Below, one piece after another: positions 10,964 through 38,154 of a stretch of DNA of 64,000 nucleotides (positions are counted from its first letter, which is position 1; every line of letters begins with the position of its first letter). The position numbers were made by a program, and so were the translations under genes. The stretch is from a bacterium (GTDB lineage Bacteria; UBA4055), in the NCBI GenBank assembly GCA_029559475.1, contig JAKQBN010000055.1:92031-156030 (forward strand), in the 5' to 3' direction. The notes below the pieces were generated by a model. That model saw only the letters and a list, made by a program, of their open reading frames with translations, had not been told where the DNA came from and did not search any database.

Positions 10964-11107
10964 TGTTACTCCGTAAATAATGTTCAAATTAAGTAAAATC
11001 CCGTTCAATTGCAATTTGAAAAACTTTTTTTAATAATTAAGAATTTCCTGTTTGCATTATCGGTTAATGTCAAATATATTCCTTTAAATAAAACTCAAAG
11101 GCTTATC

Positions 11108-11536: not shown

Positions 11537-14362
11537 ATGTGCATTCAATCGGAAGCGACTTTAGAGAAAAAACTCATCGAGCAGCTTGAAATTCAGGGCT
11601 ATGAAAAGGTCATTCTGCATGATGAAAAAGATCTTATTTCGAATTTTAAGACGCAGTTGGAAAAGCACAATAAGACGATTTTTTCGAAATCAGAGTTTAA
11701 TAAGATACTCAATCATTTAGACGGCGGAACGATATTCGAGAAATCGAAAAAGCTGCGCAATAAGTTCGAGCTTTACAGAGATGTCGGCACTCTTTCCTAC
11801 ATAGAATTTTTTAATACAGAAGAATGGTGCAAGAACGAATTTCAGGCATCAAACCAGATAAATTTGGCGGAAAGGTACAAGAACCGCTACGATGTGACGA
11901 TCCTGATAAACGGGCTGCCTCTCGTTCAGATCGAACTTAAAAGGCGCGGGATCGAGCTCAAAGAGGCATTCAATCAAATATGCCGCTATAAAGATCATTC
12001 GTTCAGGGGACTCTTTTTATACCTCCAGCTTTTCATCATCTCGAACGCGGTCAACACAAGATATTTTGCGAATAACAGAACGCTTAATTTTAAGCAGAGC
12101 TTCTGCTGGACGGATGAGAAGAATGAAAAATTCAACAGGCTGAACGAATTCGCCGATATTTTCCTGGAAAAATGCCATCTCGCCAAGATCATTTCAAAAT
12201 ATGTCGTCCTGAACGAATCCGATAAATTTTTAATGGTGCTCAGGCCATATCAATATTACGCGGCTGAAAAGATAATCAAGCGCGTAGCCGGAAAAGTTGA
12301 CCGGAACGGCTATATCTGGCACACGACCGGATCAGGCAAGACGCTCACTTCATTCAAGGCGAGCCAGATACTGACCGCTGACAAGGATGTGGACAAGGTC
12401 GTCTTTGTCGTTGACAGGAAAGATCTCGACTTCCAAACCATGAAGGAGTTCAATAAATTCTCGAAAGGCTCGGTTGATGCGACTGACGACACCATAATGC
12501 TCGTTAAACAGCTTTCCGACGAAAAGACGAAGCTTATCATAACAACGATACAGAAGCTCAACAATGCGGTCAGCAGGGTCAAATTCAACAATAAACTCGG
12601 CGACGTATCTAATAAGCGTATAATATTTATTTTTGACGAATGCCACAGGAGCCAGTTCGGCGAAACCCACAAAAGGATAAAAGATTATTTTAAGAACAGG
12701 CTTTTCTTCGGCTTTACGGGCACTCCGATATTCGAGGAGAACAGCGTAGGGTTTACGACTACGAAAGATCTTTTCGGGTCATGCCTGCACAAATATATCA
12801 TCAAGGACGCAATAGACGACGATAATGTGCTCGGTTTTTCCGTCGAGTACTATTCCACTTTCAGGTCAAAACTTCTAAAGGAAGAGAACGGGGATGATCT
12901 CGACGTGGATGAAATGGATAAGGTAAAAGGCATCAACAAAGATGAGGTGTTTTCAGCGGATGTCAGGCTGTCAAACATAGTTGATTTTATCATAAAGAAT
13001 CACGACAGAAAGACATATAACAAGGAATACAACGCGATATTCGCGGTAAGCTCAATTGAGACGCTTTTAAAATACTATGAGCTTTTCAGGAAGAAAAAGC
13101 ATAACTTAAACATAGCGACGATCTTTTCATATCAGGCGAACGAGGAGCTTGAGGATCAATACGGCAACCATAACGAGAGAGAGAACTGGAGCATGGTGGC
13201 TGAGGAGAGAGCACCTTACGGCGATAAGCAGGTTCATTCGAGAGAAAAGCTCGATCTGATCGTGAACGATTATAACAAAACTTTCAAGACGAACTTCGAC
13301 CTGAACAAGGACAACGGCTTCAACGCATATTTTGTGGATGTTTCCAAAAAGGTGAAGGAAAAGAAGATAGACATTCTACTTGTGGTCAACATGTTCTTAA
13401 CGGGATTCGACAGCGTTTTCACCAATACTCTGTATGTGGATAAGAACCTGCGCTATCACGGGCTTATTCAGGCATTTTCGAGAACGAACAGGGTGCTTGG
13501 GGAAAAGAAGAAATACGGCAATATCGTCTGCTTCAGAAACCTCAAGAAGAGAACAGACGAAGCGATAGTTTTATTTTCTAATCCCGATGCGATAGAAACC
13601 GTTTTAATGAAAGCCTACACGGAATACGCTGCAGATTTTAACAAAGCTCTCGAAGAGCTAAAAAACATCACACCGACAATAGATTCGGTTGACAAGCTCG
13701 AAGGCGATGAGCAGAAAGCACTTTTCGTCAAAGCTTTCAGGAACCTTTTACGGATCATGAACAGGCTTGTGACCTTCACCGAATTCAAATATGACGATCT
13801 GACCATTACAAGGCAGGAATTTGAGGATTACAGGAGCAAATATTTAGACATCCGCGACGAAACGAAAGACCCTGATAAGGAATCTATCTTAAAAGACCTC
13901 GATTTTGAGGTCGAACTTGTGCGCAGGGACGATATCAATGTGGATTATATCTTAAAGCTGTTAAAAGACCTCGACATGAACGATTCCGGATTTGTTAAAG
14001 ACGTGGAATTTATCTTAAAGACCATGGAAGGCTCGGACGAACTCCGCAGCAAGCGCGAACTGATCGAAAGGTTCATTAAGGAAAACCTGCCGGAATTAGG
14101 CACAGACGCGAATGTGGAGGAAGAATTCGACAAATTTATCTCGGTCGAAAAGGAAAAAGAGATAGGGGAGATGATAAGATCAGAAAAGCTGAACAAAGAA
14201 CTCGTTTACGCAGTGGTCGAGGAATATGAATTTTCGAACAAATTCCAGCGCGATAAGATCAAATCGGCACTCGTCGGCAACCTTAAACTCTCGGAACGGA
14301 AAAGAAAGATCGAACAATTGGAAAACAGCATAGAAAGCATCGTGAATAAATATAAATGGTAG
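11537..14362 (+). CDS. hsdR: Type I restriction enzyme R subunit (HsdR)
   Basis: 941 aa. N-terminal HsdR region (LEKKLIEQLEIQGYE), helicase motif I HTTGSGKT, DEAH-like FIFDECHRS, and a C-terminal helical domain. Confidence 0.9.
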   Translation: MCIQSEATLEKKLIEQLEIQGYEKVILHDEKDLISNFKTQLEKHNKTIFSKSEFNKILNHLDGGTIFEKSKKLRNKFELYRDVGTLSYIEFFNTEEWCKNEFQASNQINLAERYKNRYDVTILINGLPLVQIELKRRGIELKEAFNQICRYKDHSFRGLFLYLQLFIISNAVNTRYFANNRTLNFKQSFCWTDEKNEKFNRLNEFADIFLEKCHLAKIISKYVVLNESDKFLMVLRPYQYYAAEKIIKRVAGKVDRNGYIWHTTGSGKTLTSFKASQILTADKDVDKVVFVVDRKDLDFQTMKEFNKFSKGSVDATDDTIMLVKQLSDEKTKLIITTIQKLNNAVSRVKFNNKLGDVSNKRIIFIFDECHRSQFGETHKRIKDYFKNRLFFGFTGTPIFEENSVGFTTTKDLFGSCLHKYIIKDAIDDDNVLGFSVEYYSTFRSKLLKEENGDDLDVDEMDKVKGINKDEVFSADVRLSNIVDFIIKNHDRKTYNKEYNAIFAVSSIETLLKYYELFRKKKHNLNIATIFSYQANEELEDQYGNHNERENWSMVAEERAPYGDKQVHSREKLDLIVNDYNKTFKTNFDLNKDNGFNAYFVDVSKKVKEKKIDILLVVNMFLTGFDSVFTNTLYVDKNLRYHGLIQAFSRTNRVLGEKKKYGNIVCFRNLKKRTDEAIVLFSNPDAIETVLMKAYTEYAADFNKALEELKNITPTIDSVDKLEGDEQKALFVKAFRNLLRIMNRLVTFTEFKYDDLTITRQEFEDYRSKYLDIRDETKDPDKESILKDLDFEVELVRRDDINVDYILKLLKDLDMNDSGFVKDVEFILKTMEGSDELRSKRELIERFIKENLPELGTDANVEEEFDKFISVEKEKEIGEMIRSEKLNKELVYAVVEEYEFSNKFQRDKIKSALVGNLKLSERKRKIEQLENSIESIVNKYKW

Positions 14363-14369: not shown

Positions 14370-15917
14370 ATGACAAAGCAGAAGCTCGAACGGAAATTAT
14401 GGGACATAGCGGACACTTTACGCGGAAATATGGGTGCGGATGAATTCAGGGACTATATTCTCGGCTTTATTTTTTATAAATTCTTATCGGAAAAGATCGA
14501 AAAATTCGTTTCAGATGAGCTTAAATCGGACAAATTGAGCTTTGAAGAGGCTATGAAGGATAAAGAGCTTTCGCATGACTTAAAAGAGGAATGTATCGAA
14601 GATATGGGCTTTTTTATCGAACCGGCAAACTTATTCAGCAGGATAGCGGAAAGGGCAAAGAACAGAGAGTTTATTATTGAAGATCTCGGCCGCGCTTTAA
14701 AATCGGTAGAGGAAGCCACCATCGGGCATAAGAGCGAGGAGGATTTCGCGGGGCTTTTTGAGGATGTTGATCTTACTTCGACAAAGCTCGGAAGAACGGT
14801 TGAACAGAAGAACAAGCTCATTTCGGAAGTTATCAAGCACATAGCGGAAGTTGATTTCAGGCTTGAGGATACGGAGGCGGATGTTCTCGGCGACGCTTAT
14901 GAATATCTGATCTCACAGTTCGCGAGCGGAGCGGGAAAGAAAGCGGGAGAGTTCTATACGCCCCAGCAGGTATCAAAAATACTGGCAAAGATCGTCACTA
15001 CGGGCAAGACAAGGCTAAAATCTGCTTATGACCCAACATGCGGCTCGGGATCTTTACTTTTGAGGGTATCGAAGGAATGTAAAGTATCGGACTTCTACGG
15101 GCAGGAATTAAACACCACCACTTTCAACCTGGCGAGAATGAATATGATTCTCCATTCGGTCAAATACAACGATTTTCACATAACGCAGGGAGACACTTTA
15201 GAAGAACCGCACGACCTCGACAAACGCTTTGAGGCAGTGGTAGCCAATCCGCCATTCTCCGCGCACTGGGCGGCAAACCAGACCTTCTTATCGGACGAAA
15301 GATTCAGCCCGTACGGAAAACTCGCGCCCAAAACAAAGGCGGACTTCGCATTCGTTCAGCACATGCTCTATCAGCTTGACGAAAACGGAACAATGGCAAT
15401 AGTCTTACCTCACGGAGTACTATTCAGAGGAGCAGCGGAAGGCGAGATCAGAAAATACATCATAGAGGAAAAAAACTGGCTCGATGCCGTCATCGGACTA
15501 CCCGCGAACATCTTTTACGGAACATCAATACCCACAGTCATACTAGTATTCAAAAAATGCAGAACAGAATCCGACAGCATACACTTCATAGATGCAAGCC
15601 GGTCTTACGAAAAAGCCAAAAATCAGAACAATTTACGCGATGAAGATGTCGAAAAGATCATAAGCACATACAGGAACAGAACTCAGGAAGAAAAATACTC
15701 GCACTCAGCCTCAATAGAACAGATCAGGCAGAACGACTACAACCTAAACATTCCCAGATATGTCGATACATTCGAAGAGGAAGACGAAATTGACCTCGAT
15801 AAGATCGCGCAGGAACTCAAAAACATCGAAGCTGACATAAAACTCACAGACAAAAAGATCATCGCGCAGTGCAAAGAACTCGGAATCACCCCGCCCGTGT
15901 TTGGAGGAGAAAAATGA
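14370..15917 (+). CDS. hsdM: Type I R-M system N6-adenine DNA methyltransferase subunit (HsdM)
   Basis: 515 aa. HsdM N-terminal domain (KLWDIADTLRG), SAM motif DPTCGSGSLL and catalytic VVANPPFS (NPPF). Confidence 0.9.
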   Translation: MTKQKLERKLWDIADTLRGNMGADEFRDYILGFIFYKFLSEKIEKFVSDELKSDKLSFEEAMKDKELSHDLKEECIEDMGFFIEPANLFSRIAERAKNREFIIEDLGRALKSVEEATIGHKSEEDFAGLFEDVDLTSTKLGRTVEQKNKLISEVIKHIAEVDFRLEDTEADVLGDAYEYLISQFASGAGKKAGEFYTPQQVSKILAKIVTTGKTRLKSAYDPTCGSGSLLLRVSKECKVSDFYGQELNTTTFNLARMNMILHSVKYNDFHITQGDTLEEPHDLDKRFEAVVANPPFSAHWAANQTFLSDERFSPYGKLAPKTKADFAFVQHMLYQLDENGTMAIVLPHGVLFRGAAEGEIRKYIIEEKNWLDAVIGLPANIFYGTSIPTVILVFKKCRTESDSIHFIDASRSYEKAKNQNNLRDEDVEKIISTYRNRTQEEKYSHSASIEQIRQNDYNLNIPRYVDTFEEEDEIDLDKIAQELKNIEADIKLTDKKIIAQCKELGITPPVFGGEK

Positions 15918-17035
15918 AATATGATAAACTTATAGAAATACTTGAGACAACTCATTCAGATATGCAGTATCAGGCTTTCAGATCCGTTGATATTGCGTTA
16001 ATTATCCGTAACTGGCTGTTCGGATTTTATCTGGTCGAATATGAGCAGAACGGTGAAGACAGGGCTGAATACGGCGCAAGGCTGATTGAAAATATCTCCC
16101 AAGATTTAAGAAACAAAGGTGTCAAAGGCGTTTCACCCACAAATCTGAAAAAGGACAGAGAGTTTTATATTGAGTATAAACAAATTCGACAGACAGTGTC
16201 CGTCGAATCTTTGGTTCAGCCTCAAAAAAAAGCAACCTCAGGCACAAATATCCAAATTCGACAGTCAGTGACCGTCGAATTGGCAAAACAATTCAAATTA
16301 AGCTGGACGCATTATGTTAGTCTGTTGACCATTGACGATATAAATGAAAGAAAATTCTACGAGATAGAATCGATAAACAATTCGTGGGGCGTAAGAGAAC
16401 TCAAAAGACAGATCGCTTCTTCGTTGTATCAGCGGCTTTCAGTCAGTAAGAATAAGGCTAAATTGAAACAGCTGTCTCAAAAAGGTCAGATCATTGAAAA
16501 ACCTGAAGATTTCATAAAAGATCCGTTTATACTTGAATTTGCCGGAATAAAAGAAAAGAGCCGGTACTCAGAATATGATCTTGAAACAGCGCTTATAAAC
16601 AAACTGGAAATGTTCCTTTTAGAGCTTGGCAAAGGCTTTTTATTCGAGGCAAGACAGAAAAGATTCACATTTGACGATGACCATTATTATGTTGATCTCG
16701 TATTTTACAACAGACTGCTTAAATGTTATGTTCTGATTGATCTCAAGCGCGATAAACTTACGCATCAGGATCTCGGTCAGATGCAGATGTATGTGAACTA
16801 TTTTGACAGATATGTTAAGCTTAAAGATGAAAATCCGACAGTCGGGATCGTATTGTGCCACAGGAAAAATGACGCTTTAGTAGAACTCACACTCCCTGAA
16901 AATTCTAATATATTCGCTTCAAAATACAAATTATATTTACCGACAAAGGAAGAATTAAAACGGCAGCTTGTAAAAGAAATAGGTATGGTCAAAGAAGAAA
17001 TGGCACTTTACGGAACTCAGCGGAAAGGAGAATAA
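15914..17035 (+). CDS. DUF1016/YhcG-like PD-(D/E)XK nuclease-domain protein embedded in the Type I R-M operon
   Basis: ATG at 15914 overlaps the hsdM stop (ATGA). The C-terminus carries a PD-(D/E)XK-like core (YYVDLVFYN ... YVLIDLKRD) and the N-terminal helical DUF1016_N-like region. Confidence 0.65.
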   Translation: MKYDKLIEILETTHSDMQYQAFRSVDIALIIRNWLFGFYLVEYEQNGEDRAEYGARLIENISQDLRNKGVKGVSPTNLKKDREFYIEYKQIRQTVSVESLVQPQKKATSGTNIQIRQSVTVELAKQFKLSWTHYVSLLTIDDINERKFYEIESINNSWGVRELKRQIASSLYQRLSVSKNKAKLKQLSQKGQIIEKPEDFIKDPFILEFAGIKEKSRYSEYDLETALINKLEMFLLELGKGFLFEARQKRFTFDDDHYYVDLVFYNRLLKCYVLIDLKRDKLTHQDLGQMQMYVNYFDRYVKLKDENPTVGIVLCHRKNDALVELTLPENSNIFASKYKLYLPTKEELKRQLVKEIGMVKEEMALYGTQRKGE

Positions 17036-17887
17036 ATGAAATCAGATTTTCAGAAATACTTGAACAAACAGAACAGCGGAGCATTAAACGACTTTGACGG
17101 ACTTTCACCCGACACAATGCACAACATTCTGTATTCATCCTTCCAGAAAAACGGCCTGATCCGGATTAACGCGGACATATCGGCTGAAGCTATAAATCAG
17201 GTGCCTGTCTTCAAGCTCGTCAAACATTTTATGCGGATACTTGAGCGTGAAAAACAGATAAAGCTCACACAGGCCGAATACCTGCCTCCAAAGTATGTGA
17301 AGGAACTTTACGAAAGCACCGTACTCAAAGATGACGCGGTTGAAAGTGGAATAGTAAAGCTTACAGGCGAAAAAGATGTCATTATCATATTTGTTGCCCG
17401 CATTCTGGCCAAGTTATGCGGATATACAAAATTGAGGAACAATGTTATAACTATAACAAAAGCAGGCGAACAGGCACTAACCGACGATCGGGAGCTATAT
17501 TTCGGGTTAATGGACGCTCTCATATCTAAATTCAACTGGGGATTTGAATCCGTCAGACAGGACGACGGTTTCATCCAAAGGTCAGTCGGCTACACTTTAT
17601 ACCTTCTCAAAAAGTACGGGAACGAATACAGGGAATCAAGATATTACTACAACAAGTTCTTTAAAGCTTTCCCCGCCTCAATGAACGCGTTCGATTTCGA
17701 TCCCGATCCAAAATATAAGACCATGTCTCACTGGTGGGCTTACCGTAACAGAATATTCAGAACATACCTGACATACATGGGCGCGGTCGAATACGAGATC
17801 ATCTATAATAAAGAGGAACACACCGAGACCGATCAGGTCAGAAAAACAAAATTGTTCGATGAAATATTCACAATAAACATAAAATAA
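17036..17887 (+). CDS. hypothetical protein (283-aa ORFan) embedded between the YhcG-like gene and hsdS
   Basis: Long ORF in operon context. ATG directly abuts the upstream stop and the gene lies 11 nt before hsdS. No recognisable motif. Confidence 0.5.
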   Translation: MKSDFQKYLNKQNSGALNDFDGLSPDTMHNILYSSFQKNGLIRINADISAEAINQVPVFKLVKHFMRILEREKQIKLTQAEYLPPKYVKELYESTVLKDDAVESGIVKLTGEKDVIIIFVARILAKLCGYTKLRNNVITITKAGEQALTDDRELYFGLMDALISKFNWGFESVRQDDGFIQRSVGYTLYLLKKYGNEYRESRYYYNKFFKAFPASMNAFDFDPDPKYKTMSHWWAYRNRIFRTYLTYMGAVEYEIIYNKEEHTETDQVRKTKLFDEIFTINIK

Positions 17888-17898: not shown

Positions 17899-18996
17899 AT
17901 GAAAAGCCATTCAGATAAAAACACAAAACAACCAAAACTCCGCTTCCCCGGTTTCACAGAAGAGTGGCAGGAAAAAAGACTGGGGGAAATTGGGAAAATA
18001 ACTACGGGTAGCACTCCGAGCACTTTCGTAGAAAAATACTATAACGGGGAATACCTATTCGTATCTCCTTTCGATATTAGTGATAAGAAATATATTTTTA
18101 CTACACAAAAAACGCTTACTGAAGAGGGATTTAAGAAAACAAGAAATATCAAAAAATGCAGTGTATTATTTGTTTGTATAGGTTCGACAATAGGAAAAAT
18201 TGCCGTAGCGGGTACGGATTTAGCGACAAATCAACAAATCAATGCAATAACATGCGAGCATGAAGCCCAGAACGAATTTGTTTATTACTCGTTATTGAAG
18301 AAAGCAGATCAAATAAAACTCATGGCTGGAGAGCAAGCCGTTCCGATAATAAATAAATCAAACTTTGAAACTGTTAAGTTACCAATGACTTCACCAGCAG
18401 AACAAAAGAAGATCTCAGAATTCCTTTCCGACATAGACACAAAGATCGAAAAACTCACCCGCAAAAAAGAACTCACCGAGCAGTACAAAAAAGGAGCAAT
18501 GCAAAAAATCTTCTCGCAGAAAATCCGCTTCAAAGATGATAACGGAAAAAATTATCCTGACTGGCAAGAAAAGAGGCTGGGTGAGGTGGCTACGATAAAA
18601 AGAGGAGCAAGCTCTCAATATTTAAAATATGTTAATAATTCTTCTGAAGGTGTAAGGCTGATTAGAATCACTGATTTCTTAGAAAGTGAACCAGTATTTA
18701 TCAAGGAGAGTCTAGAATTAGATAGGTTCAAACTAAAAAAAGATGATATCCTTATTGCAGGTACTGGAGCAACAGCAGGTATTACTTTCAAAGTACCAGA
18801 TAAATTTATCGGTATGGTTTATAGCTATAACGTTCCTCAGATCACTCCTGTTTCATGTGATCCTAATTATTTAATTCAATTTCTCAAGTCCGATTCGATC
18901 TCTAAACAACAAGAAGGTTTATTTACAGGTAATGCACAGCATTTTTTAGACATAAAGGCAATTTCAAACTTGAAATTACCTTTACAATGTGCATAA
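17899..18996 (+). CDS. hsdS: Type I R-M specificity subunit (HsdS), C-terminally truncated at the IS21 junction
   Basis: Two target-recognition domains, each preceded by the conserved LRFPGFTEEWQEKRLGE / IRFKDDNGKNYPDWQEKRLGE segment. Central conserved helix VKLPMTSPAEQKKISEFL...KIF. The protein ends at LKLPLQCA*, where the C-terminal conserved helix should begin. The stop TAA at 18994-18996 abuts the IS terminus. Confidence 0.8.
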   Translation: MKSHSDKNTKQPKLRFPGFTEEWQEKRLGEIGKITTGSTPSTFVEKYYNGEYLFVSPFDISDKKYIFTTQKTLTEEGFKKTRNIKKCSVLFVCIGSTIGKIAVAGTDLATNQQINAITCEHEAQNEFVYYSLLKKADQIKLMAGEQAVPIINKSNFETVKLPMTSPAEQKKISEFLSDIDTKIEKLTRKKELTEQYKKGAMQKIFSQKIRFKDDNGKNYPDWQEKRLGEVATIKRGASSQYLKYVNNSSEGVRLIRITDFLESEPVFIKESLELDRFKLKKDDILIAGTGATAGITFKVPDKFIGMVYSYNVPQITPVSCDPNYLIQFLKSDSISKQQEGLFTGNAQHFLDIKAISNLKLPLQCA

Positions 18997-19115
18997 TTCT
19001 TGCGAAAGTGACCAGTCAATTCCTGTCAAAGTGTTACAGATAATCTGATATAAAATAAAAGTTTTCCACTTCAAGAACTCCTATTATATTCGCTCCGAAC
19101 AAAAGAGGAGCGGAT

Positions 19116-20747
19116 ATGTCAAACAGGAGGCTTGATATGATAAATGTTCAACACCTGATACGGCAACTGGCTGAAGGCAAGTCGTATCGGGTAATAGGCA
19201 CAAATCTGGCGATATCGCCGACAACTGTCAAGAAATATGCGAAGTATATCAGAAAGAACGGTCTTAATGTCGAAGAGCTTAAGGGAAAACCGCCATCCGA
19301 GCTGGAGACTATTATAGACATAGCGGATCCTGCAGAAAGGCAACGAGCGGAAGAAGCTTTAACATGTATCAGGAAACATGAAAGTTCTTTGGTTGCAAGG
19401 CGGCTGACACGAAAAGATGTCTATGAAAAATATAGAATAGATATAGAATCTCCTCTAAGCTACAGCCGTTTCTGCGTAAAAGTAGAAGATGAACTTAAGA
19501 AAAGCGGCGCAACAATGCACTTTAATCACAAGCCAGGCGACAAGCTGTTCGTTGACTTTGCCGGAGACAAGCTGTGTTATTATGAAAAAGAGACAGGCGA
19601 GAAGATATCTGTTGAGGTCTTTGTGGCTGTTCTCGGACACAGTCAGAAGACCTTTGTCTTTGCGGTACATAGCCAGTGTAAAAACGATTTTATAGAGTCA
19701 CTTAAGCGTGCGTTCGAATACTACGGAGGTATACCATGCGCGATAGTACCGGACAATCTGAAATCAGGCGTAAATAAAGCAAGCTTATATGAACCTGAAA
19801 TGAACAGGAGCTTCAAACACTTTTGTGAACATTACGGCTGTTTTGCTTATCCCGCAAGGCCGCGTTCTCCAAAAGACAAGAGCCTTGTCGAGAATGCCGT
19901 AGGCAGAATGTACAGAGACATTTACACGCACATAAAAGCCTGTAAATACTACTCGATGGAAGAGTTGAATGCGGCTATACTTGAAAAGCTTGAAGAATCG
20001 AACAATAAACCGTTCCAGCGTCGTGATTACAGCAGAAATGATCTTTTTGAAAGTAATGAAAAGGACTGCCTTAAGCCGTTGCCTTCAAACGAATATGAGA
20101 CAGTAGATTTTTACAGTGCCACAGTCAGGCGCGATTATCATATCTGGTTCAGGCCTGACAAGCACCAGTACAGCGTACCTTATGAATACATAGGCAAAAC
20201 ATTAAAAGTTATTTACAATACAGATACCGTAGAGATATTTTACGGATACACAAGAATAGCCTTGCATAAGAGAAACAGATCAAGATACGGCTTTACCACA
20301 AACCCTGAACATATGCCGGCAAATCATAAATACATGGCTGATCTTACTCCTGAAAATCTGATGAAGAAAGCTGAAGAAATAGGCGTTTATACATCATCTG
20401 TAATCGAAAAAATACTCGGATCAGGCAACTATTATGATCAGAGAATAAGAAGCTCAAGAGGAGTACTGTCGCTTGCAAATAAGCTCGGAAAAGAAATTAT
20501 GGAACAGTGCTGTAAACGGGCTTTATCATACGGTATTTATAATTACAGACAGCTAAGAAACATAGCGGATATGAAGCTGTATCTTGAAGAAGATATAACC
20601 GTAACCGGCGGGTATATAGACAACCATCAAAACAAGAGAGGTGTTGAATATTATTTTGCGACACTTTTACAGGAATCGTGTGACACTTTGACAAGAATCA
20701 GCTACAATAATACAGAAATACAAACGAAAACGGAGGCGGAATGTTAA
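19116..20747 (+). CDS. istA: IS21-family transposase IstA
   Basis: 543 aa. N-terminal HTH (SYRVIGTNLAISPTTVKKY) and a DDE integrase core (FVDFAG...CAIVPDNLKSG...ENAVGRMYRD...) typical of IstA. Confidence 0.85.
   Translation: MSNRRLDMINVQHLIRQLAEGKSYRVIGTNLAISPTTVKKYAKYIRKNGLNVEELKGKPPSELETIIDIADPAERQRAEEALTCIRKHESSLVARRLTRKDVYEKYRIDIESPLSYSRFCVKVEDELKKSGATMHFNHKPGDKLFVDFAGDKLCYYEKETGEKISVEVFVAVLGHSQKTFVFAVHSQCKNDFIESLKRAFEYYGGIPCAIVPDNLKSGVNKASLYEPEMNRSFKHFCEHYGCFAYPARPRSPKDKSLVENAVGRMYRDIYTHIKACKYYSMEELNAAILEKLEESNNKPFQRRDYSRNDLFESNEKDCLKPLPSNEYETVDFYSATVRRDYHIWFRPDKHQYSVPYEYIGKTLKVIYNTDTVEIFYGYTRIALHKRNRSRYGFTTNPEHMPANHKYMADLTPENLMKKAEEIGVYTSSVIEKILGSGNYYDQRIRSSRGVLSLANKLGKEIMEQCCKRALSYGIYNYRQLRNIADMKLYLEEDITVTGGYIDNHQNKRGVEYYFATLLQESCDTLTRISYNNTEIQTKTEAEC
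20659..20698 (+). repeat. internal copy of the IS21 right-end double repeat, inside the istA 3' coding region
   Basis: gcgacacttttacaggaatcgtgtgacactttgacaagaatca is near-identical to the right terminus ctgtgacactttaaacaggaatcagtgggacactttgacaagaat. Confidence 0.6.
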
Positions 20748-21493
20748 ACGAAAATACATTGTCAAAAATGAAAGAGATGAACCTGACAGGAATGTATGAT
20801 GCATTTAAGCTAACTCTTAGCCTGAATGACTATAAGAAAATGACTTGCGATCAGCTAGCGGCATCTCTTGTTGACGCAGAATACGATAACAGGCGAAACA
20901 AAAGACTTGCCCAAAGGTTAAGTACAGCTAAGTTGCGTTATCCGGCATCAGCTGAACAGGTTGACTTTAATGCGGATAGAAAGCTCGATAGAAACCTGTT
21001 CATGAGACTTACAGACTGCAACTACATCAGACAGGCTGAGAATGTTATAATCAGCGGTATGACGGGCACAGGTAAAAGCTATATAGCCTGCGCATTAGGA
21101 CATCAGGCTTGTATAGCAGGATATAAAGTTATATATCACAACTTCAACAAACTCATGGCTAAGCTAGTAATGTCAAGAGGAGACAACTCGTATCTAAAGG
21201 AAATAAATAAGATAGCCGGCTACGATCTTTTAATCATAGATGACTTCGGCCTACAAACAATGGATCATGCCTCAAACATATCACTCCTTGAAATACTCGA
21301 AGACCGCTACGGCTCGAAATCTACGGTCATAGCTTCTCAGATCCCGCCTGAAAACTGGTATGCTCTCTTCAATAGCTCAACTATAGCTGATGCCTGCTTA
21401 GACAGAATAATACATAATGCGCATAAAATGGATATTACAGGGGAATCTATGAGAAAGAATAAAAAGGTTGCAGCGAAGAAAAAGAATGGTTAA
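20741..21493 (+). CDS. istB: IS21-family helper ATPase IstB
   Basis: 250 aa. Walker A GMTGTGKSY, Walker B LLIIDDFG. Overlaps the istA end by 7 nt, as is typical for IS21. Confidence 0.9.
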   Translation: MLNENTLSKMKEMNLTGMYDAFKLTLSLNDYKKMTCDQLAASLVDAEYDNRRNKRLAQRLSTAKLRYPASAEQVDFNADRKLDRNLFMRLTDCNYIRQAENVIISGMTGTGKSYIACALGHQACIAGYKVIYHNFNKLMAKLVMSRGDNSYLKEINKIAGYDLLIIDDFGLQTMDHASNISLLEILEDRYGSKSTVIASQIPPENWYALFNSSTIADACLDRIIHNAHKMDITGESMRKNKKVAAKKKNG

Positions 21494-21529
21494 ATTTTAA
21501 CGGGTTCAGGAGGTGGAAACTGTGACACT

Positions 21530-23323
21530 TTAAACAGGAATCAGTGGGACACTTTGACAAGAATCTACACCTGTATAATTCTGGCTGGTTTGAGAAGTGC
21601 TAACATTTGAGTAGGATCGCTGGCTTGGGCTAAAAGTATAACTCGATTTACTCGGAGTTATAACTCCTGTCCAGATATCTGTTGGAACAGATAATGAATA
21701 ATCACCGTTTGAATCTGTTGTTGTTGATACTATTCCATTGGTTCCTGATAACGTTACACCGCTTATTGTTGCGCCTGAGCTGTTTGTGATCCTGCCTGAA
21801 ATTACATTTGATGATTCACTAAAATTTAATTTAAAAGAATACGGAAAAGCGAATGTGTTTGCTGTGGCAGTTCCTATGATTTTTAAATAAATGTCACTGT
21901 TGTATAACAAAGAATATGAGAACTGAATGTTAGTGCTAAATGTACCGAATTTAACTTGAACTAGGCTGCCATTATTATTCTCATATAAATAGTACGTATT
22001 CACACCTGAAGCGTTTGGATAAAGATTGACGGTGACACTACCTGGTTTGTTATTGATATATCTATACATATCTTGATCTGATGAACCGCCTCCTGATTGA
22101 ATAGTTACTGATCCATTATATTCTATATTGTTGCTTATCGTATATGCCAATTCTTTAGTTGATGGTTCATCCATTCCTCGGATTAAATGACGGTAAGCGT
22201 CACATTCATCATTATGCTCTAAATTTACATTTAAAGTGTCAGATATATTCAAAGGTACAATATTACCAGTTTCATTTCTTAAATACTGGCGACTATATAA
22301 AACACAGCCATCACCAGGATCTTGAGGAATTGGATTCAACCAGTTCGCTGGGTTCTCACCATCATGTGAATTAGAAGCTATCCAAGTATACCGAATATTT
22401 GGTGGTAATGGCATATTAGTATTATAACTAAACGAAGCACTACTTAAGTTGAGACCGACAATGTTCGAATTAATAGCACTATCGCAGTTGATGTCCCTAT
22501 TAAAATAATCATCCAATGAACTAGACCATTCTTTACCACCAAATAGATAAATTCCGTCTGCGCCAGCATCAAAAGAATATTTCAAATCTCGCATAGCTTC
22601 AGAATGTATATTTGGTGGTGTTTCAGATTTCTGATCGTAATACTTTGTATTAGAAGGATCGAATCCTGAGTTTGATCCAAGATGAGGTGTCCCTATAGTA
22701 ACTACTCGTGCAACTTTGTGTCCGTTTATGTTATCAGAAGGATTTACCCACCACTTATGATTAGTGCTTGTTGTACCGTCTATTGTTCTTTGGAGATATT
22801 CTCTTATAGCAAGGCCACCCATAGAATGCCCAACTAGTATTACTTTCTCCGAGTTCGTAAAATCGATTACTTCAGTTATCATTTTACTTAACGCATATCC
22901 CTGCTTAAAAATCGCCGATTCATTGCTATGGTCAAACTGATCATTCCACCACCCATCTGCTGCCTTTATTCTTTCTTCTTTGAAATTGATCGCAAAAATA
23001 TAAGAATCTGGATCCCAATCATACAAACTATAATTAAATCTTCGTGGTCCAAGTATTATTGTTTTATCACCATATACTGTATCAGACCATTTGACATCGT
23101 TTTCGAGCACAGAAGTATCGTTAGCATTATCGAAATTTAGTATAACATCATATGAATTTATGTTTCCCCAATCGTAATTACCACTATTCAAATAATTCAT
23201 CGTTTCTTGAAATGACTCATCGCTACCGACTAGTCCGTGAACGAAAATAATAGGATATGGAGGTTTTGCTCCATAAATTAATGTTGTTAACACGATAATG
23301 AGAATCAACAATATTTTCTTCAT
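21530..23323 (-). CDS. secreted lipase/esterase (alpha/beta hydrolase, PGAP1-like) with a C-terminal carboxypeptidase-regulatory-like domain. The C-terminus is supplied by the IS21 end.
   Basis: Signal peptide MKKILLILIIVLTTLIYGA. Nucleophile elbow ILVGHSMGGLAIREY. C-terminal ITNSSGATISGVTLSG...TTDSNGDYSLSVP is CarbopepD_reg-like. The last 11 codons (DSCQSVPLIPV*) are encoded by the IS21 right terminal repeat. Confidence 0.7.
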   Translation of the reverse strand: MKKILLILIIVLTTLIYGAKPPYPIIFVHGLVGSDESFQETMNYLNSGNYDWGNINSYDVILNFDNANDTSVLENDVKWSDTVYGDKTIILGPRRFNYSLYDWDPDSYIFAINFKEERIKAADGWWNDQFDHSNESAIFKQGYALSKMITEVIDFTNSEKVILVGHSMGGLAIREYLQRTIDGTTSTNHKWWVNPSDNINGHKVARVVTIGTPHLGSNSGFDPSNTKYYDQKSETPPNIHSEAMRDLKYSFDAGADGIYLFGGKEWSSSLDDYFNRDINCDSAINSNIVGLNLSSASFSYNTNMPLPPNIRYTWIASNSHDGENPANWLNPIPQDPGDGCVLYSRQYLRNETGNIVPLNISDTLNVNLEHNDECDAYRHLIRGMDEPSTKELAYTISNNIEYNGSVTIQSGGGSSDQDMYRYINNKPGSVTVNLYPNASGVNTYYLYENNNGSLVQVKFGTFSTNIQFSYSLLYNSDIYLKIIGTATANTFAFPYSFKLNFSESSNVISGRITNSSGATISGVTLSGTNGIVSTTTDSNGDYSLSVPTDIWTGVITPSKSSYTFSPSQRSYSNVSTSQTSQNYTGVDSCQSVPLIPV

Positions 23324-23528
23324 TTTCCCCTCTCCTTACTCTTGTATTTAATTTTTTTAATTTTTGATATATCAATGTTATAAAAAACTTGTGCTTATAA
23401 TCCGTACTTCTTCTATACATTTCTTACTTTCTCAAACTTATAATAATTTAATTTAACATTTCTCAGTTATCTGTTTCAACTGTTTCCGTATTATTTTTTA
23501 TTTTTTCCATTTTTAGCTTCGATTTTTG

Positions 23529-24854
23529 TTATATGAACTGATGTCTGTGTTCGGGATATACTAGAGATGGGGTACTGATCTGTCGGATCATCTGGTCGGC
23601 CTGAGCCTTTATTTCATGATAGCCGTTCTTTTGTGCCAGCTCGATGGACTTTTTGTAACATTCAACAGCTTTTTCAGTATTATAAAGTTCTTTTACGATC
23701 AGTCCGCAGTTCAGGTAGAATAATGCTAAAGCTTTTTCGTCATTGAGCGATGATACAATGCTGTGCGCCTTATTTAAATGATAGATAGAATTTTTACTGT
23801 CCTTAATGATCCTGTGACAGTCCGAATAGAGCATATATATCTGGTATCTGTACAGGTTCTGTCTGTCGGCCGGCAGAGAACGGATCCTGAGTAAAGCGGA
23901 TTTTAAAAGGTATTTTGTCGTCTCGGAATTGCTTCGGATGATCGATATCTTTGATCTTTTGATTATGGCATTTATCAGCAGCTCATCATCGGATCCTGAA
24001 CCTTCAAGAATGTGGATCAGTTTCTCGCAGATATTGTCTGAAGTCTCGTGATTTTTATTCTTTCTGTGCTGGACCGCGGCGCTGTACTTTGCTTTAAGAT
24101 CGCTTATCGTTTTTTCAGTATCGAAAAAATTCCCGCAGTCATACACGATGTCTGAATGCATGGTCATGTTGACTTTTTTTATAAAACTTTTGAATTTATT
24201 TGATTTTAACGCGGATCTTTCCAGAATTATCTGATTGTTCAAAGAGACCGTAGCCAACGAATCGAAAAGGAAATCACAGATGTTCTCGTATCTTGTCCTT
24301 TCTTTTAAATAATTATATTTTTTTAGGGAAAAATTAACATATTTTCTTATCTCTTTATAATGTTTCAGAATAAATTCTATATCTTTGTATCTGCTTCTAT
24401 CAACATCGAATATTTCGCAGGATTTATCTATAAATAGCCTTTTTATTCTGATCCCCGATCTTTTGCAGTCTGAAATGAATTGAGCTATGAACTGACTTAG
24501 GATCCGTTTTTCTTTTACGGGCGAATATGCGCAGAATACAAATCCGTGATTAATGTCTTTTATGAGATATCTGAATACAGGTTTTTCTTTTTGCAGCGGA
24601 TACAGTTCCGATACTTTTAATACAAGTTCTGAAAGCGGACTGCCGTTAGCCTTATAATTATCGTTTCCGTCTTCTTTTTTCTTTTGACTTTTATTCTTTG
24701 AAAGAAGACCGTTCTTTTGTGAGTTGATCCAGTTTCTTATTGTTCGCGGAGTTATCCCGTGAATTTCTGCAAGTTTTTTTATTTTTTTTCTGCTCGTAGC
24801 CTGTTTTATAACTTTCAGCTTTTCCTCGACGGACTTACGCATAATAATGCTCAT
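23529..24854 (-). CDS. HTH-domain + TPR-repeat protein (paralog A). Its transposase-like N-terminal region is speculative.
   Basis: 441 aa. N-terminal HTH KLKVIKQATSRKKIKKLAEIHGITPRTIRNWI. Central region conserved with the upstream paralog (FRYLIKDINHGFVFCAYS, YENICDFLFDS). C-terminal TPR-like helical repeats. Confidence 0.55.
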   Translation of the reverse strand: MSIIMRKSVEEKLKVIKQATSRKKIKKLAEIHGITPRTIRNWINSQKNGLLSKNKSQKKKEDGNDNYKANGSPLSELVLKVSELYPLQKEKPVFRYLIKDINHGFVFCAYSPVKEKRILSQFIAQFISDCKRSGIRIKRLFIDKSCEIFDVDRSRYKDIEFILKHYKEIRKYVNFSLKKYNYLKERTRYENICDFLFDSLATVSLNNQIILERSALKSNKFKSFIKKVNMTMHSDIVYDCGNFFDTEKTISDLKAKYSAAVQHRKNKNHETSDNICEKLIHILEGSGSDDELLINAIIKRSKISIIRSNSETTKYLLKSALLRIRSLPADRQNLYRYQIYMLYSDCHRIIKDSKNSIYHLNKAHSIVSSLNDEKALALFYLNCGLIVKELYNTEKAVECYKKSIELAQKNGYHEIKAQADQMIRQISTPSLVYPEHRHQFI

Positions 24855-24978
24855 TTTAATTTTCGGTTAATGTTTTATAAGCAAAATTTAATGCATAAAA
24901 AAGCTGAATTCAATTATTGCCGGATATTTTTATATTTTTTCCGTTTTTAGCTATGTTTTTAAAAATATGAAATAACTT

Positions 24979-27096
24979 TTATACCTGATGCAACTCTAAT
25001 TGTTTTTTCACAAAGTACATCTGTTCTTCAGTATCGTATAATTTACTTTTTAGCAGTTCCTGCAGATAAATTTTATAAGCTTCTTTTTTGTTCGTCTTAT
25101 AAAAATCAGACTTTTTTTCTAATATTACTGAAGAATAAGCATAGAATTCATTTGAATCTGAATCTGCTTTCTTATTAAGGATTTTTAAATTCGCTTTTGC
25201 CTTTTTAAAATCTCCGGACTCTATGTGCAGTTCGATTAATACCGTCAAAGCTTTGAGATAAGGGAATGGATTTCCTTTTGTTGTCTTTGCTATTTCTATT
25301 GCTGATAATATTTCCGATTCAGCCTTTACGAACTTTTTTTCAATTTTTGAGATCATTCCGTTATATAAAGGCAAATTATACTTCTGTGAAGTATTATCCG
25401 TATTCTCCAAGAGCAGAGAAACCTCGGACAATCTGCTTTTTACATCGGAAATTCGTCCTGATTCAATTTCAGACAGACACAAATTCAGCATATTATCTAT
25501 AAGCGGTACTTTCAGGTTGTTTTTTTGCGATAATTCAATATTGTCTTCAAATATTTTCCCGGCTTTTAGAAATTCATTCATTTTTATATACGCCACGGCT
25601 TTGTTGCCCGATACAGGGATTCGAATGGTGGTCAGCACAGCAGGATTATCTGATCTGTCAATAATTTCAACGGACTTATCATAAGCTTTAATGCTTTCCG
25701 ATAATTTTCCCGCGATCTGAAGACAGTCTCCGTATTTTGCCCATAGAACTACTTTCTGAACGAACATGTTTTTATATAGATCATCGGCTATCATTTTTTC
25801 GTATAATTTTATTGCTTCTGAAGTATTACCTCTTTTTACGTTGTAATCAGCTTTATTCTCTTTTACCGCAAGAAGGATGTCGTCGAATTTATTCTTCTCG
25901 GCTAATACTTCGGACTTGAGTAAGAATTCTTCAGCTTTATCAAATGTACCTGTATTCTTATAAAATAGGGAATAATTTATGTAAAATATTGCCTTGTTCC
26001 TTTCATTGCTGTCTGCTTCAACTTGTCGTCTTGCTTTTTCAAAGAAATAAAGGCACTTTCTGTTTTCGTTTGTCAGTCTGTAAACATCCGCGTAAAGCAT
26101 ATAGCCTGCATACTTAAACCCGCTTATTTTATCAGCCGGAAGTAATTTCGCCATTTTCATAGCCTTCGAAAAGTATTTTCTTGCATTAACCATATCTTTT
26201 TTTAATGCATAGACCTTCCCTATCTGGATCAGTATTTTTGCGTACAGTTCCGAATAAGATCCCGAATCTTTTAAGATCACTTCTATCCTTCTGTAACGGT
26301 CATCCGAATTCACAAGATCGAATTTTTTATGGATTTCGAGAGCCTGATCGAACATTTTTGTCAGTATTTCGCCTGATCTGCTTTCGTCAAAGCTTTTAAC
26401 TTCATCGGAAAGAATAGCCGAATGATACTTTATGTTCAGCTTTTTTACAGATTCGAAACATTTGGAAGATTTTACAGCCTTATATTTTTCTAATGCTGTA
26501 TGATTGTTTTTTGCTGTCGTAGCCATAGAATCAAATAAAAATTCATTATTGTTTTCGTATTTTGTTCTTTCTTTCATAAAACTATTGTGCTTTGTTGTAA
26601 AAGTCAGATGTTTTTTGATCGAAGTGTTGTTAACGCAGGTCAGTATTGTGCCTGTAGATTTTAGATCACTAACATGATTTCTTTTATCTGTAATAATTTT
26701 CTTTACTGTTATTCCTGATTTTTTCAGGTCTGAAAGAAAGAGATTTAAAATTTCTTTGAAATATCCGTTAGAGTTGTCGGATGAATACGCGCATAGAATA
26801 AATCCGCGGTTTATATCTTTTAAAAGATGCCTGTAAACAGTTTGATCTTTCAGAACAGAATATACAAGTGAAACTTTATAAACCGATTCGCTGAAAGGTC
26901 CTGATATTTTTTTACTCTTTTGAGGACTTTTCGGATCAGGATCCTTTTTGCCGTTAAGTTCGCCTGCTTTGTAAAGCGCGATCCAGTTCTTTATGGTTTT
27001 TTCGGTAATCCCGTGCTGGATGGCGAGTTTCTTTATCAGCTTTTTACTTTTCGCCTGTTTTACGATCTCTAATTTCTCGATCAATGATCTGGTCAT
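24979..27096 (-). CDS. HTH-domain + extended TPR-repeat protein (paralog B)
   Basis: 705 aa. N-terminal ~230 aa are paralogous to 23529-24854 (KLEIVKQAKSKKLIKKLAIQHGITEKTIKNWI, YRHLLKDINRGFILCAYS, YENNNEFLFDS). These are followed by ~450 aa of TPR-like repeats. Confidence 0.55.
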   Translation of the reverse strand: MTRSLIEKLEIVKQAKSKKLIKKLAIQHGITEKTIKNWIALYKAGELNGKKDPDPKSPQKSKKISGPFSESVYKVSLVYSVLKDQTVYRHLLKDINRGFILCAYSSDNSNGYFKEILNLFLSDLKKSGITVKKIITDKRNHVSDLKSTGTILTCVNNTSIKKHLTFTTKHNSFMKERTKYENNNEFLFDSMATTAKNNHTALEKYKAVKSSKCFESVKKLNIKYHSAILSDEVKSFDESRSGEILTKMFDQALEIHKKFDLVNSDDRYRRIEVILKDSGSYSELYAKILIQIGKVYALKKDMVNARKYFSKAMKMAKLLPADKISGFKYAGYMLYADVYRLTNENRKCLYFFEKARRQVEADSNERNKAIFYINYSLFYKNTGTFDKAEEFLLKSEVLAEKNKFDDILLAVKENKADYNVKRGNTSEAIKLYEKMIADDLYKNMFVQKVVLWAKYGDCLQIAGKLSESIKAYDKSVEIIDRSDNPAVLTTIRIPVSGNKAVAYIKMNEFLKAGKIFEDNIELSQKNNLKVPLIDNMLNLCLSEIESGRISDVKSRLSEVSLLLENTDNTSQKYNLPLYNGMISKIEKKFVKAESEILSAIEIAKTTKGNPFPYLKALTVLIELHIESGDFKKAKANLKILNKKADSDSNEFYAYSSVILEKKSDFYKTNKKEAYKIYLQELLKSKLYDTEEQMYFVKKQLELHQV

Positions 27097-27235
27097 ACAT
27101 AACCCCTCTTAATTTATTACTTTTCGCCAATATCGTTTTACATCACTTTTAGTGATAATTTATAAAAGACTGAATGAATAATCAAGATATATTAAACGTG
27201 ATCGATAAATCAGCGGAGTTGAAATAATCTTAAAA

Positions 27236-27270
27236 TAAAAAAGGCAGTACATAATTACTGCCTTTTTATT
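27236..27270. terminator. bidirectional rho-independent terminator
   Basis: aaaaaaggcagtac-ataat-tactgcctttttatt: a 7-bp stem (ggcagta/tactgcc) with an A-tract upstream and a T-tract downstream, just 3' of the VWA lipoprotein gene. Confidence 0.6.
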
Positions 27271-27303
27271 CAAAACCGGAATACCCGGTCATGTTCTTCA
27301 GAT

Positions 27304-28482: not shown

Positions 28483-28637
28483 TTCGTTTCTCCATTTTTG
28501 TTTTTCTTAGGATATTTACACTACTTTCCCAATTTAAAATAAACCAAAGTAATAATCAAGTAATAATTTACCTTATTATTCTGTAATTTATGCAGACATT
28601 TTTTTGGAGGATATCATGACGTGTAATTTCAAAAGAT

Positions 28638-37212: not shown

Positions 37213-37229
37213 AACAGGTATCTTAAATG

Positions 37230-38142: not shown

Positions 38143-38154
38143 TTATACCCCGTT

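Follow-up and report, generated by a model that had tools for sequence, protein, structure and literature searches.

Recombination between two inverted copies of an IS21-family insertion sequence (IS) may have flipped a ~56-kb block of the genome studied here, thereby joining hsdS and a predicted lipase gene on one copy of the element, a reading to which we assign a probability of about one half. This reading draws on the observed junction sequences, the copy number of the IS, the length of its target-site duplications, the truncation of both genes, and the gene order found in relatives. The 64,000-nucleotide stretch of DNA that was analysed (hereafter, the window) contains a copy of the element flanked by both genes (Table 1). 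The first-pass annotation of this DNA proposed that a single IS21 copy had removed the 3′ ends of two convergent genes, either by an adjacent deletion or by recombination between IS copies. Recombination between IS copies is still the most likely class of event, whereas a single adjacent or IS-IS deletion is disfavored by synteny and by the retention of a Type ISP gene.

Table 1. Features of the window, with positions counted from its first nucleotide.
Feature	Position	Strand	Details
rlmI-like 23S rRNA methyltransferase gene, synteny anchor	9782..11014	-	NCBIfam similarity to RlmI; relatives 98% to 69%
hsdR (941 aa), apparently intact	11537..14362	+	NCBIfam TIGR00348, 481 bits vs cutoff 284.55
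hsdM (515 aa), apparently intact	14370..15917	+	NCBIfam TIGR00497, 458.6 bits vs cutoff 242.75; model 3-507/515
Two genes between hsdM and hsdS	15869..17887	+	YhcG/DUF1016 PDDEXK nuclease, then 283-aa ORF
hsdS (truncated, 365 aa)	17899..18996	+	Pfam Methylase_S, two stretches; layout S1-D1-S2, D2 helix missing
IS21-family insertion sequence, 2,580 bp, ~7 identical genome copies	18990..21569	+	5′-TG...CA-3′ ends
Left terminal inverted repeat	18990..19040	+	L1 ~18996-19017, L2 ~19019-19040, 23 bp apart; TG 18990-18991
istA transposase gene (543 aa)	19116..20747	+	NCBIfam NF033546 (IS21 family transposase), 210.9 bits vs cutoff 160
Two internal terminal-repeat-unit copies, 3′ end of istA	20656..20699	+	Oriented as R2/R1; 0-2 mismatches to R1 core
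istB AAA+ helper gene (250 aa)	20741..21493	+	NCBIfam NF038214, 229 bits vs cutoff 200; Pfam IstB_IS21 3.1e-58
Right terminal inverted repeat	21520..21569	+	R2 ~21521-21542, R1 ~21544-21565, 23 bp apart; CA 21568-21569
Alpha/beta-hydrolase ('lipase') ORF, 597 aa	21530..23323	-	Native part 21570-23323 = residues 1-585
First 42.4 kb of the ~56-kb block	21570..64000	.	lipase ... MutS2 ... TldD/V-ATPase ... DUF6901, 244-aa gene 59498-60232

An IS21-family element present in several identical copies

The assignment of the element to the IS21 family, which had been made in the first pass, is borne out by its istA and istB genes and by its TG...CA ends. Its boundaries coincide with those of a stand-alone metagenome contig of 2,580 bp (ERZ773361 NODE_48495), which is 100% identical to exactly positions 18990-21569. 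Like IS21, IS5376 and other members of this family, the element has 5′-TG...CA-3′ termini, generates short target duplications, is multicopy, and carries istA (HTH, DDE/rve and Mu-transposase-like C domains) followed by an overlapping gene for the IstB AAA+ helper. For example, the Pfam matches of istA include rve (1.6e-10) and Mu-transpos_C_2 (6.1e-15), and istB starts at 20741, before the istA stop codon at 20745-20747. Each terminal inverted repeat (TIR) consists of two direct repeats (L1/L2 and R1/R2) with the 23-bp spacing that has been described for IS21 TIRs (PMC10122671). These units begin at 18996 and 19019 on the left and at 21521 and 21544 on the right, the inverted-repeat arms occupy 18996-19026 and 21534-21564, the terminal repeat motif has four matches where 0.11 were expected, and the right end of the IS reads ...GACAAGAATCTACA.

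Unlike known IS21 elements, the one described here has two extra repeat units inside the 3′ end of istA, and these are conserved in a sibling IS that is 88.7% identical. In addition, no annotated plasmid-borne IstA is more than 39% identical to that of this element, and the best matches come from Bacteroidota plasmids. A scan for the pattern of the IS ends gave no matches among viral sequences and a single match among genomes, a solo 53-nt remnant of the right end in UBP11 UBA4055; the corresponding scan of metagenomes is not exhaustive, as it missed two contigs that overlap the window.

The IS contig has a coverage of 83.05, and junction contigs from this organism have one of 10.2-11.5 (11.5 for NODE_325, the lipase contig), which corresponds to ~7 copies that do not differ in sequence and were collapsed into one contig. 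The first-pass description of a single copy is thus correct for the window and incorrect for the genome. As judged from these sequences, the element appears to have expanded recently in this genome and is predicted to be mobile.

At two other copies of the IS, 8-bp duplications directly abut its ends (ATCTTATT at L007/L017 and TATCCTAT at L010/L009), in contrast to the 5 bp reported for IS5376/IS21 (PMC10122671). The copy in the window lacks such a duplication, as had been noted earlier, since its left flank ends in TTACAATG and its right flank starts with CCTGTATA. Because the IS makes 8-bp duplications elsewhere, something more than a simple insertion must have happened at this copy. Most copies of the IS in this genome also lack duplication partners. 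A 14-nt direct repeat (at 18990 and 21572) was considered as a target duplication and rejected, because its copies are out of register with the true IS ends, and the one on the right is conserved lipase coding sequence.

Loss of the 3′ ends of hsdS and the lipase gene

It had been proposed that hsdS ends where the left end of the IS begins, and this is the case with one correction: native sequence continues to position 18989 (Gln363 plus 2 nt), and the IS completes a Cys-Ala-stop that includes the TAA at 18994-18996. Both target recognition domains (TRDs) of HsdS are present (Pfam Methylase_S, 4e-32, in two stretches) and align to the two TRDs of its homologues, and the central conserved helix D1 (LPMTSPAEQKKISEFLSDIDTKIEKL...KKGAMQKIF) is encoded at 18373-18513. 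The D2 helix, which is the partner of D1, is absent, and the ORF stops in the proline motif that precedes it. Past the sequence ...LKLPLQ, all seven full-length homologues (~400 aa) run on for ~41 residues (LPxLxEQxKIAxFLSxIDxKI...KKGLLQQMFV) that include the C-terminal helix, so a segment of this length is missing from the hsdS product (alignment A1). These comparisons agree with the earlier view that the C-terminal helix has been lost and that the protein is not naturally short, and HsdS is therefore classified here, from its predicted sequence, as a truncated member of its family.

The identical truncated HsdS protein occurs in at least four datasets; no intact, near-identical hsdS allele was found, nor any HsdS of >60% identity besides the truncated forms. 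When the C-termini of the seven homologues were used as tblastn queries, the window yielded only the central conserved region and the hsdS 3′ remainder was not found at any of the fetched IS-junction loci, in keeping with the earlier statement that no hsdS sequence lies beyond the IS. The far end of the 56-kb block may carry this remnant.

Linked hsdM and hsdR genes that score above the cutoffs of their family models accompany hsdS, and a JGI gene identical to hsdR has the HSDR_N, ResIII and EcoR124_C Pfam domains. Between hsdM and hsdS are a gene for a YhcG/DUF1016 PDDEXK nuclease, which ends at 17035 (Pfam YhcG_C, 1.6e-53; DUF1016_N, 1.3e-29), and the 283-aa ORF (17036-17887), which has no Pfam or NCBIfam match. 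As hsdR and hsdM both still appear intact, the loss of the specificity subunit from this Type I restriction-modification system is most likely a recent one.

The two TRDs of HsdS are held by a D1/D2 coiled coil (PMC3874165), and the loss of D2 has probably inactivated the specificity subunit. Active truncated HsdS variants, namely deletion mutants of EcoDXXI and EcoR124I as well as NgoAV, likewise have an hsdS gene that was shortened at its 3′ end by a genetic accident, and these proteins keep one TRD and one dimerisation helix (S1-D1) and act as homodimers (PMC3874165). Unlike these variants, the HsdS protein described here keeps S1-D1-S2 without D2; its second TRD would have no helix to pair with, so loss of function is the likelier outcome.

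On the other side of the element, the IS encodes the end of the lipase ORF, as the first-pass annotation had recognised, with a contribution that is slightly larger than the 11 codons given there. The minus strand of the right TIR supplies the final 12 codons and the stop (VDSCQSVPLIPV*), together with the third base of the Gly585 codon. The closest homologue that covers this domain (P0123, 51%) is similar exactly up to residue 585 and extends 234 residues beyond that point, which upholds the claim that the native 3′ end of the gene is missing. The translated ORF contains a GxSxG nucleophile motif (GHSMGG), Pfam matches above their cutoffs to PGAP1 (31.8; cutoff 24.3), DUF676 (31.0; 20.3) and Lipase_2 (25.5; 20.3), and a CarboxypepD_reg-like domain at residues 508-549. 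The term 'lipase' is used here as a family label only, for a predicted hydrolase; this secreted hydrolase is now without its native C-terminus. The same lipase-IS fusion ORF is found in the JGI and ENA/NCBI assemblies and, by inference, in the Logan assembly, and no intact allele of >64% identity was found besides the truncated forms. A 158-aa ORF at the L011 junction (on NODE_973) was considered as the missing lipase C-terminus and rejected, since it resembles none of the lipase homologues and lacks a Pfam match; it looks like a 5′-truncated separate gene.

Gene order in relatives and a model for inversion

The block that starts at the lipase gene continues for ~13.7 kb past the window (NODE_325, 56,226 bp; Ga0116236_10000724, 56,372 bp). 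In relatives, the V-ATPase/DUF2764/DUF6901 cluster directly adjoins RlmI, both in L034-L037 (RlmI 87%) and in L038 (RlmI 69%). In the window, this cluster occupies ~50.4-58.7 kb, which is ~47 kb away on the far side of the block, and is inverted relative to RlmI. The convergent neighbour of the lipase gene in the relative L025 (lipase 64%) is a Type ISP gene. The Type ISP orthologue (64%) of the window organism is found on L011 at 11.1x coverage, with an IS left end 3.7 kb away, and its orientation is exactly that expected if the left junction on L011 and the right junction at the lipase gene were once part of one IS copy. The RlmI/hsd side would ancestrally have been beside the V-ATPase end of the block, and the lipase end beside the Type ISP gene; therefore, the block is flipped in the window, whether this took place in the genome itself or just in its assembly. 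The proposal in the first-pass annotation that two convergent neighbours had been truncated is not sustained by this comparison, since gene order in relatives indicates that hsdS and the lipase gene were never convergent neighbours. The contig that is joined to hsdS is its syntenically correct neighbour, merely flipped, an outcome that an arbitrary exit from the repeat would give in ~1 of 8 cases. The GC/AT skew across the junction simply tracks the coding strand in the window and is uninformative on inversion.

Homologous recombination between IS copies is known to yield chromosomal inversions and deletions as part of general bacterial genome plasticity. In the model that we prefer, one insertion event would have placed an IS left end in hsdS after codon 363, disconnecting the D2 helix, and a separate event would have placed an IS right end in the lipase gene after codon 585. 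The ~56-kb block would then have had an IS copy at each end, the two being inverted relative to each other, and homologous recombination between them would have flipped it. The IS copy in the window would be a recombinant that obtained its left part from the hsdS copy and its right part from the lipase copy, which would account for the missing 8-bp duplication. An extra IS-associated deletion would be required at the lipase end, because a different gene is cut at its 5′ end by L011, the ancestral partner junction, and because the L011 and lipase junctions share no duplication. Between the JGI (k=127) and ENA (k=55) versions, the length of the block changes by 146 nt (72 + 74), and therefore both of its ends stop in repeats. 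The far (244-aa/radical-SAM) end of the block is presumably an IS right end. We infer that the flip is physical and not a choice made in assembly. As in known IS-IS rearrangements, inverted identical IS copies would bound the block, hybrid copies lack matching duplications, the breakpoints are IS ends, and the gene order of relatives gives the polarity of the change. Unlike those cases, the data are short-read metagenome assemblies, in which a real flip is inseparable from a wrong assembly path because inversion isomers share identical junction sequences.

Alternative explanations

A distinct possibility, and the most serious competitor of a physical flip, is that both junctions are real but located on two different IS copies, and that the wrong end of the neighbouring contig was joined during assembly. 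The ancestral order would then have been kept, and would run from the Type ISP gene through one IS copy to the lipase gene, the V-ATPase cluster and the 244-aa gene, and through another IS copy to hsdS and RlmI. Repeats of 2.6 kb with ~7 copies are not normally crossable by short reads, and the IS is such a collapsed repeat. The link from hsdS through one IS copy to the lipase gene is present only in the contig of the window; in three other assemblies of the same organism (JGI 3300010353, ERZ773361/GCA_035431505.1 and Logan SRR5168926), both junctions are contig ends that stop 30-127 nt inside the IS. The caution about misassembly voiced in the first pass was justified. In the two annotated NCBI MAGs, gaps of 730 and 1,036 separate the accession numbers of the HsdS and lipase proteins, so the two genes are on different contigs in both. 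In addition, the length of the contig that links them (169,848 nt) is close to the sum of 111,232, 56,372 and 2,580 less the overlaps; this repeat is the only one that was crossed, and the contig as a whole again breaks at repeats on its outer sides. Both synteny tests also make the other orientation the ancestral one. Arguing against an artefact, an arbitrary exit from the repeat would reach the lipase end only about once in 7-8 cases, and the choice of the correct neighbour suggests that real linkage information was used; moreover, inverted identical 2.6-kb repeats are good substrates for recombination, which makes the flipped isomer biologically plausible.

It is unlikely that hsdS and the lipase gene were convergent and that one IS-adjacent deletion, or one deletion between directly repeated IS copies, took both 3′ ends along with the intervening DNA. 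Such an event would fit the precise truncation of both genes at the IS ends, the missing duplication at a copy of an element that makes 8-bp ones elsewhere, and the failure to find the hsdS remainder in the window or other fetched junction contigs; moreover, IS-associated deletions seem to be common in this genome, given that there are several further copies with no duplication partner. However, relatives at two distances place RlmI at the opposite end of the 56-kb block, and the Type ISP gene, which neighbours the lipase gene in a relative, is still present beside another IS left end at full coverage (11.1x) and was therefore not deleted. For a single deletion to apply, an earlier inversion in which the IS played no part would also have had to use the same two breakpoints.

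It is more doubtful still that a non-canonical, duplication-less IS21 pathway drove these rearrangements directly, rather than through RecA recombination. Candidates for such a pathway could be reactive-junction-like or pseudo-end transposition, or transposition in which the internal site takes the place of an IS end. At a distance of 2-3 bp from the IS end, six of nine duplication-less junctions and none of the four paired ones have a TG in the right flank or a CA in the left flank, and the clearest flanking look-alike of the IS left end matches it at 12 of 14 positions (21572-21585). Together, the duplication-less junctions, these flanking dinucleotides and the internal repeats that resemble IstA sites could point to such a pathway.

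Finally, a simple insertion of the IS between complete genes, or an HsdS protein that naturally ends at ...LKLPLQ, has a negligible probability, as nothing but the ORFs themselves speaks for it, and against it are the C-terminal helix in all full-length homologues, the stop codons of both ORFs inside the IS, and the lack of an 8-bp duplication at the window copy.

Implications

The truncations of hsdS and the lipase gene, together with the expansion of the IS, are ordinary IS biology in a metagenome-assembled genome and include nothing unexpected. The main value of this analysis is one of caution, since the picture of one IS and two truncated convergent genes arose from a multicopy repeat in an assembly of short metagenome reads. 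The lineage with the expanded element is found in sludge and digester metagenomes, and in this uncultured lineage a recently expanded IS21-family element appears to reshape the genome, or at least to fragment its assembly.

The IS21-family element

The truncated hsdS and the lipase open reading frame (ORF) are separated by a complete element of the IS21 family, the family that the first-pass annotation had recognised. Both IstA and IstB score above their model cutoffs, and the ends are of the TG...CA type. Its limits are fixed by ERZ773361 NODE_48495, a stand-alone metagenome contig of 2,580 bp that is identical (100%) to exactly this interval, and by the 8-bp target duplications that abut the ends of two other copies. 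Each terminal inverted repeat (TIR) comprises a pair of repeat units with a 23-bp spacing (18996/19019 and 21521/21544), the same organisation as that described for IS21 (PMC10122671). The closest plasmid-borne annotated IstA proteins are at most 39% identical to that of the window, so the element is an undescribed member of a well-known family.

In addition, the 3' end of istA holds two tandem internal copies of the TIR unit in R2/R1 orientation. The second matches R1 at 21/22 positions, and AGCTACA follows it where the true IS end reads TCTACA. A sibling IS with 88.7% identity (L024, position 1695) keeps one of these units; the pair may act as an alternative right end or as a regulatory site for IstA. 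An 88%-identical sibling (JGI 3300037307, L023 20-739) lies directly 3' of a DDE_3 (IS630-like) transposase gene, an IS-next-to-IS arrangement. The genome collection gave a single match, in an otherwise unrelated MAG (L018 5131-5183; DFZN01000043.1, UBP11 UBA4055): a solo remnant of 53 nt that matches the IS right end at 90.6% identity and has no IS body beside it. A viral scan for IS ends was empty.

Features at and around the junction (window positions)
Feature	Position	Strand	Remarks
RlmI	9782-11014		conserved; immediately left of the hsd island
DUF5655 gene	11009-11515		5' of hsdR
YhcG/DUF1016 PDDEXK nuclease gene and 283-aa ORF	15869-17887		between hsdM and hsdS; the 283-aa ORF lacks a family match
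hsdS	17899-18996		native to Gln363 plus two bases
Complete IS21-family insertion sequence	18990-21569		ends 5'-TG...CA-3'
IstA	19116-20747		NCBIfam NF033546, 210.9 bits (cutoff 160)
Internal TIR-unit copies	20656-20699		within the 3' end of istA
IstB	20741-21493		NCBIfam NF038214, 229 bits (cutoff 200)
Lipase ORF	21530-23323	minus	native to Gly585
Adjacent paralogous genes, 441 and 705 aa	23529-27096	minus	immediately upstream of lipase; N-terminal transposase-like HTH (HTH_28, HTH_23, HTH_Tnp_1), then TPR repeats
2,022-aa ORF	31144-37212		16 FG-GAP/VCBS-like repeats, Listeria-Bacteroides repeat domains, terminal fn3; probably a large surface protein

Truncation of hsdS and the lipase gene

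hsdS is completed by the IS, which provides the remainder of a Cys codon, one Ala codon and the stop codon. The proposed loss of the C-terminal helix is borne out by seven homologues alignable along the full protein, all of which extend ~41 residues further (LPxLxEQxKIAxFLSxIDxKI...KKGLLQQMFV). The cut lies in the proline motif preceding the C-terminal D2 helix; paired with the central D1 helix, D2 makes a coiled coil that holds the two recognition domains of HsdS in position (PMC3874165). The truncated protein thus has the layout S1-D1-S2 without D2, and the coiled coil presumably cannot form. Known active truncations keep a target recognition domain with its helix (S1-D1) and act as homodimers (PMC3874165); the window HsdS, with D2 missing, does not match this pattern and has probably lost its function as a specificity subunit. 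That hsdR and hsdM have kept their full length, and that the IS copies do not differ from one another, argues that the event is recent. This truncated HsdS is the only allele of its gene in the protein collection. No hsdS remainder is present in the window, as had been noted; the missing 3' end may lie ~13.7 kb past the window, beside the IS copy presumed to bound the other end of the ~56-kb block starting with the lipase gene. The hsd island also lies beside rlmI in 98%-identical relatives (L026-L033).

The tail of the lipase ORF is likewise encoded by the IS, as had been proposed, by 12 codons (VDSCQSVPLIPV plus the stop) rather than 11. Similarity to P0123, the closest homologue over that region (51%), ends exactly at residue 585, and P0123 extends 234 residues past this point; the closest homologue overall is P0122 (64%, 806 aa). 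Starting 2 bp outside the IS right end, the native coding sequence TGTATAATTCTGGC (21572-21585) matches the IS left terminus TGCATAATTCTTGC at 12/14 positions. The NCBI label of the MAG proteins, 'Clostridiales bacterium', looks doubtful. Against it stand a 64% RlmI homologue with the label Candidatus Delongbacteria, the T9SS sorting domains of many lipase homologues, and a T9SS-tail-like segment (L010 5099-5395; 38% to the C-terminus of P0124) encoded on another contig that has this IS at its end.

Copy number and target duplications

The flanks of the window copy, TTACAATG (left) and CCTGTATA (right), have no duplication in common, in agreement with the first-pass annotation. Coverage in ERZ773361 is 83 for the IS contig versus 8-11.5 for contigs ending in the IS (11.5 for the lipase contig, NODE_325), and therefore indicates roughly 7 copies. 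A scan of ERZ773361 for both IS ends recovered 11 further exact-match contig-end junctions, plus one whose left end is a diverged variant (94%; L013). In two left/right pairs the flanks carry perfect 8-bp duplications: ATCTTATT, where the IS interrupts one gene, and TATCCTAT; recognisable partners are thus found for only 2 of the ~7 copies (L006-L017, ERZ773361 contig ends). Unpaired junctions cut ORFs at the 5' end (L012, L015) or the 3' end (L006+, L014).

TG or CA lies 2-3 bp outside the IS end at 6/13 junctions (21572-21585 and flanks in L002, L006, L008, L012 and L014); 6/6 of these are without a duplication partner, and 0/4 paired junctions show TG/CA (post-hoc binomial ~2e-3). In flank sequence, such duplication-less junctions are reminiscent of the IS21 abutted-end 'reactive junction'.

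Apparent linkage of hsdS to the lipase gene

The hsdS left and lipase right junctions are each repeated base for base in JGI 3300010353, ERZ773361/GCA_035431505.1 and Logan SRR5168926, always as contig ends 30-127 nt into the IS. The two genes also lie on different contigs in both annotated NCBI MAGs, to judge from HsdS and lipase protein accessions that are 730 and 1,036 numbers apart. The IS is traversed only in the 169,848-bp contig behind the window, a length close to that of the 111-kb contig, the 56-kb contig and the IS added together. On both sides the 56-kb block ends in repeats, with a difference of 72 nt at one end and 74 nt at the other between the k=127 and k=55 versions. It is quite possible that the hsdS-lipase adjacency is present in the assembly only.

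Gene order in relatives and origin of the arrangement

In relatives from four samples (L034-L037, RlmI 87%) and in an outgroup (L038, RlmI 69%, 256-kb contig), a TldD/V-ATPase/DUF2764/205-aa/DUF6901 cluster directly adjoins RlmI, a 23S rRNA methyltransferase-like anchor, with an orthologue of the window 244-aa gene between them in the 87% relative. The window has this cluster at ~48.8-60.2 kb, on the far side of the block and inverted relative to RlmI. Evidence independent of the RlmI side comes from L025 (lipase 64% identical), where the gene downstream of the lipase gene and convergent with it codes for a restriction enzyme of Type ISP. In the window organism, the 64% orthologue of that gene lies on NODE_973 (L011), 3.7 kb from another IS left end, oriented exactly as expected if this left end and the lipase right end were once one copy. 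Therefore, the ancestral order was Type ISP ... IS - lipase ... V-ATPase ... 244 ... - IS - hsdS ... hsdR - RlmI, in which, on synteny, the two IS copies appear mutually inverted; the block is flipped in the window. GC skew, used as a check of the flip, tracks the coding strand only.

The hsd island (11009-18989) is missing from L034 and L038, as are the ~17 kb after the 244-aa gene (60256-64000 and beyond, L020; ORF6N, DUF6868, HTH, DUF488, glycosyltransferase and radical SAM/SPASM genes). Together, in the ancestral orientation, the two regions would make up a single island, at least 27 kb long, flanked by the 244-aa gene and rlmI.

Homologous recombination between inverted IS copies flips the intervening DNA, and leaves hybrid IS copies, flanks without a common duplication, and unaltered junction sequences. 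Such an exchange between the two ancestral copies would flip the 56-kb block and yield the window arrangement. Since the assembler joined the syntenically correct contig, which an arbitrary exit would reach with ~1 chance in 8, we put the probability of a real inversion at about 0.5. The same odds weigh against an assembly artefact, a possible but less favoured source of the identical sequence, in which a collapsed repeat was left by the wrong exit; junction sequences are unchanged by the flip, so short reads cannot separate the flipped from the ancestral isomer. Whether or not the flip is real, the lipase side still calls for an IS-associated deletion that took out the 3' end of the lipase gene, the intergenic region and the beginning of the next gene, because the lipase right junction has no duplication partner and its ancestral partner L011 differs, ending CCCATACC and cutting the 5' end of a 158-aa ORF. 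The first-pass annotation had allowed for IS-IS recombination, which stands as the kind of event, but the single deletion it envisaged of the 3' ends of two formerly convergent neighbours is very improbable: it predicts hsdS-side genes beside lipase-side genes in window orientation, an order not found in the relatives compared, and the Type ISP contig, at a normal 11.1x, is not deleted.

Overall, this is an ordinary IS21-family insertion with rearrangement in a MAG. NODE_5074 has an IS right end at each end and NODE_973 an IS left end at each end, and the junctions suggest that this genome contains multiple IS-bounded segments that are invertible or deleted.
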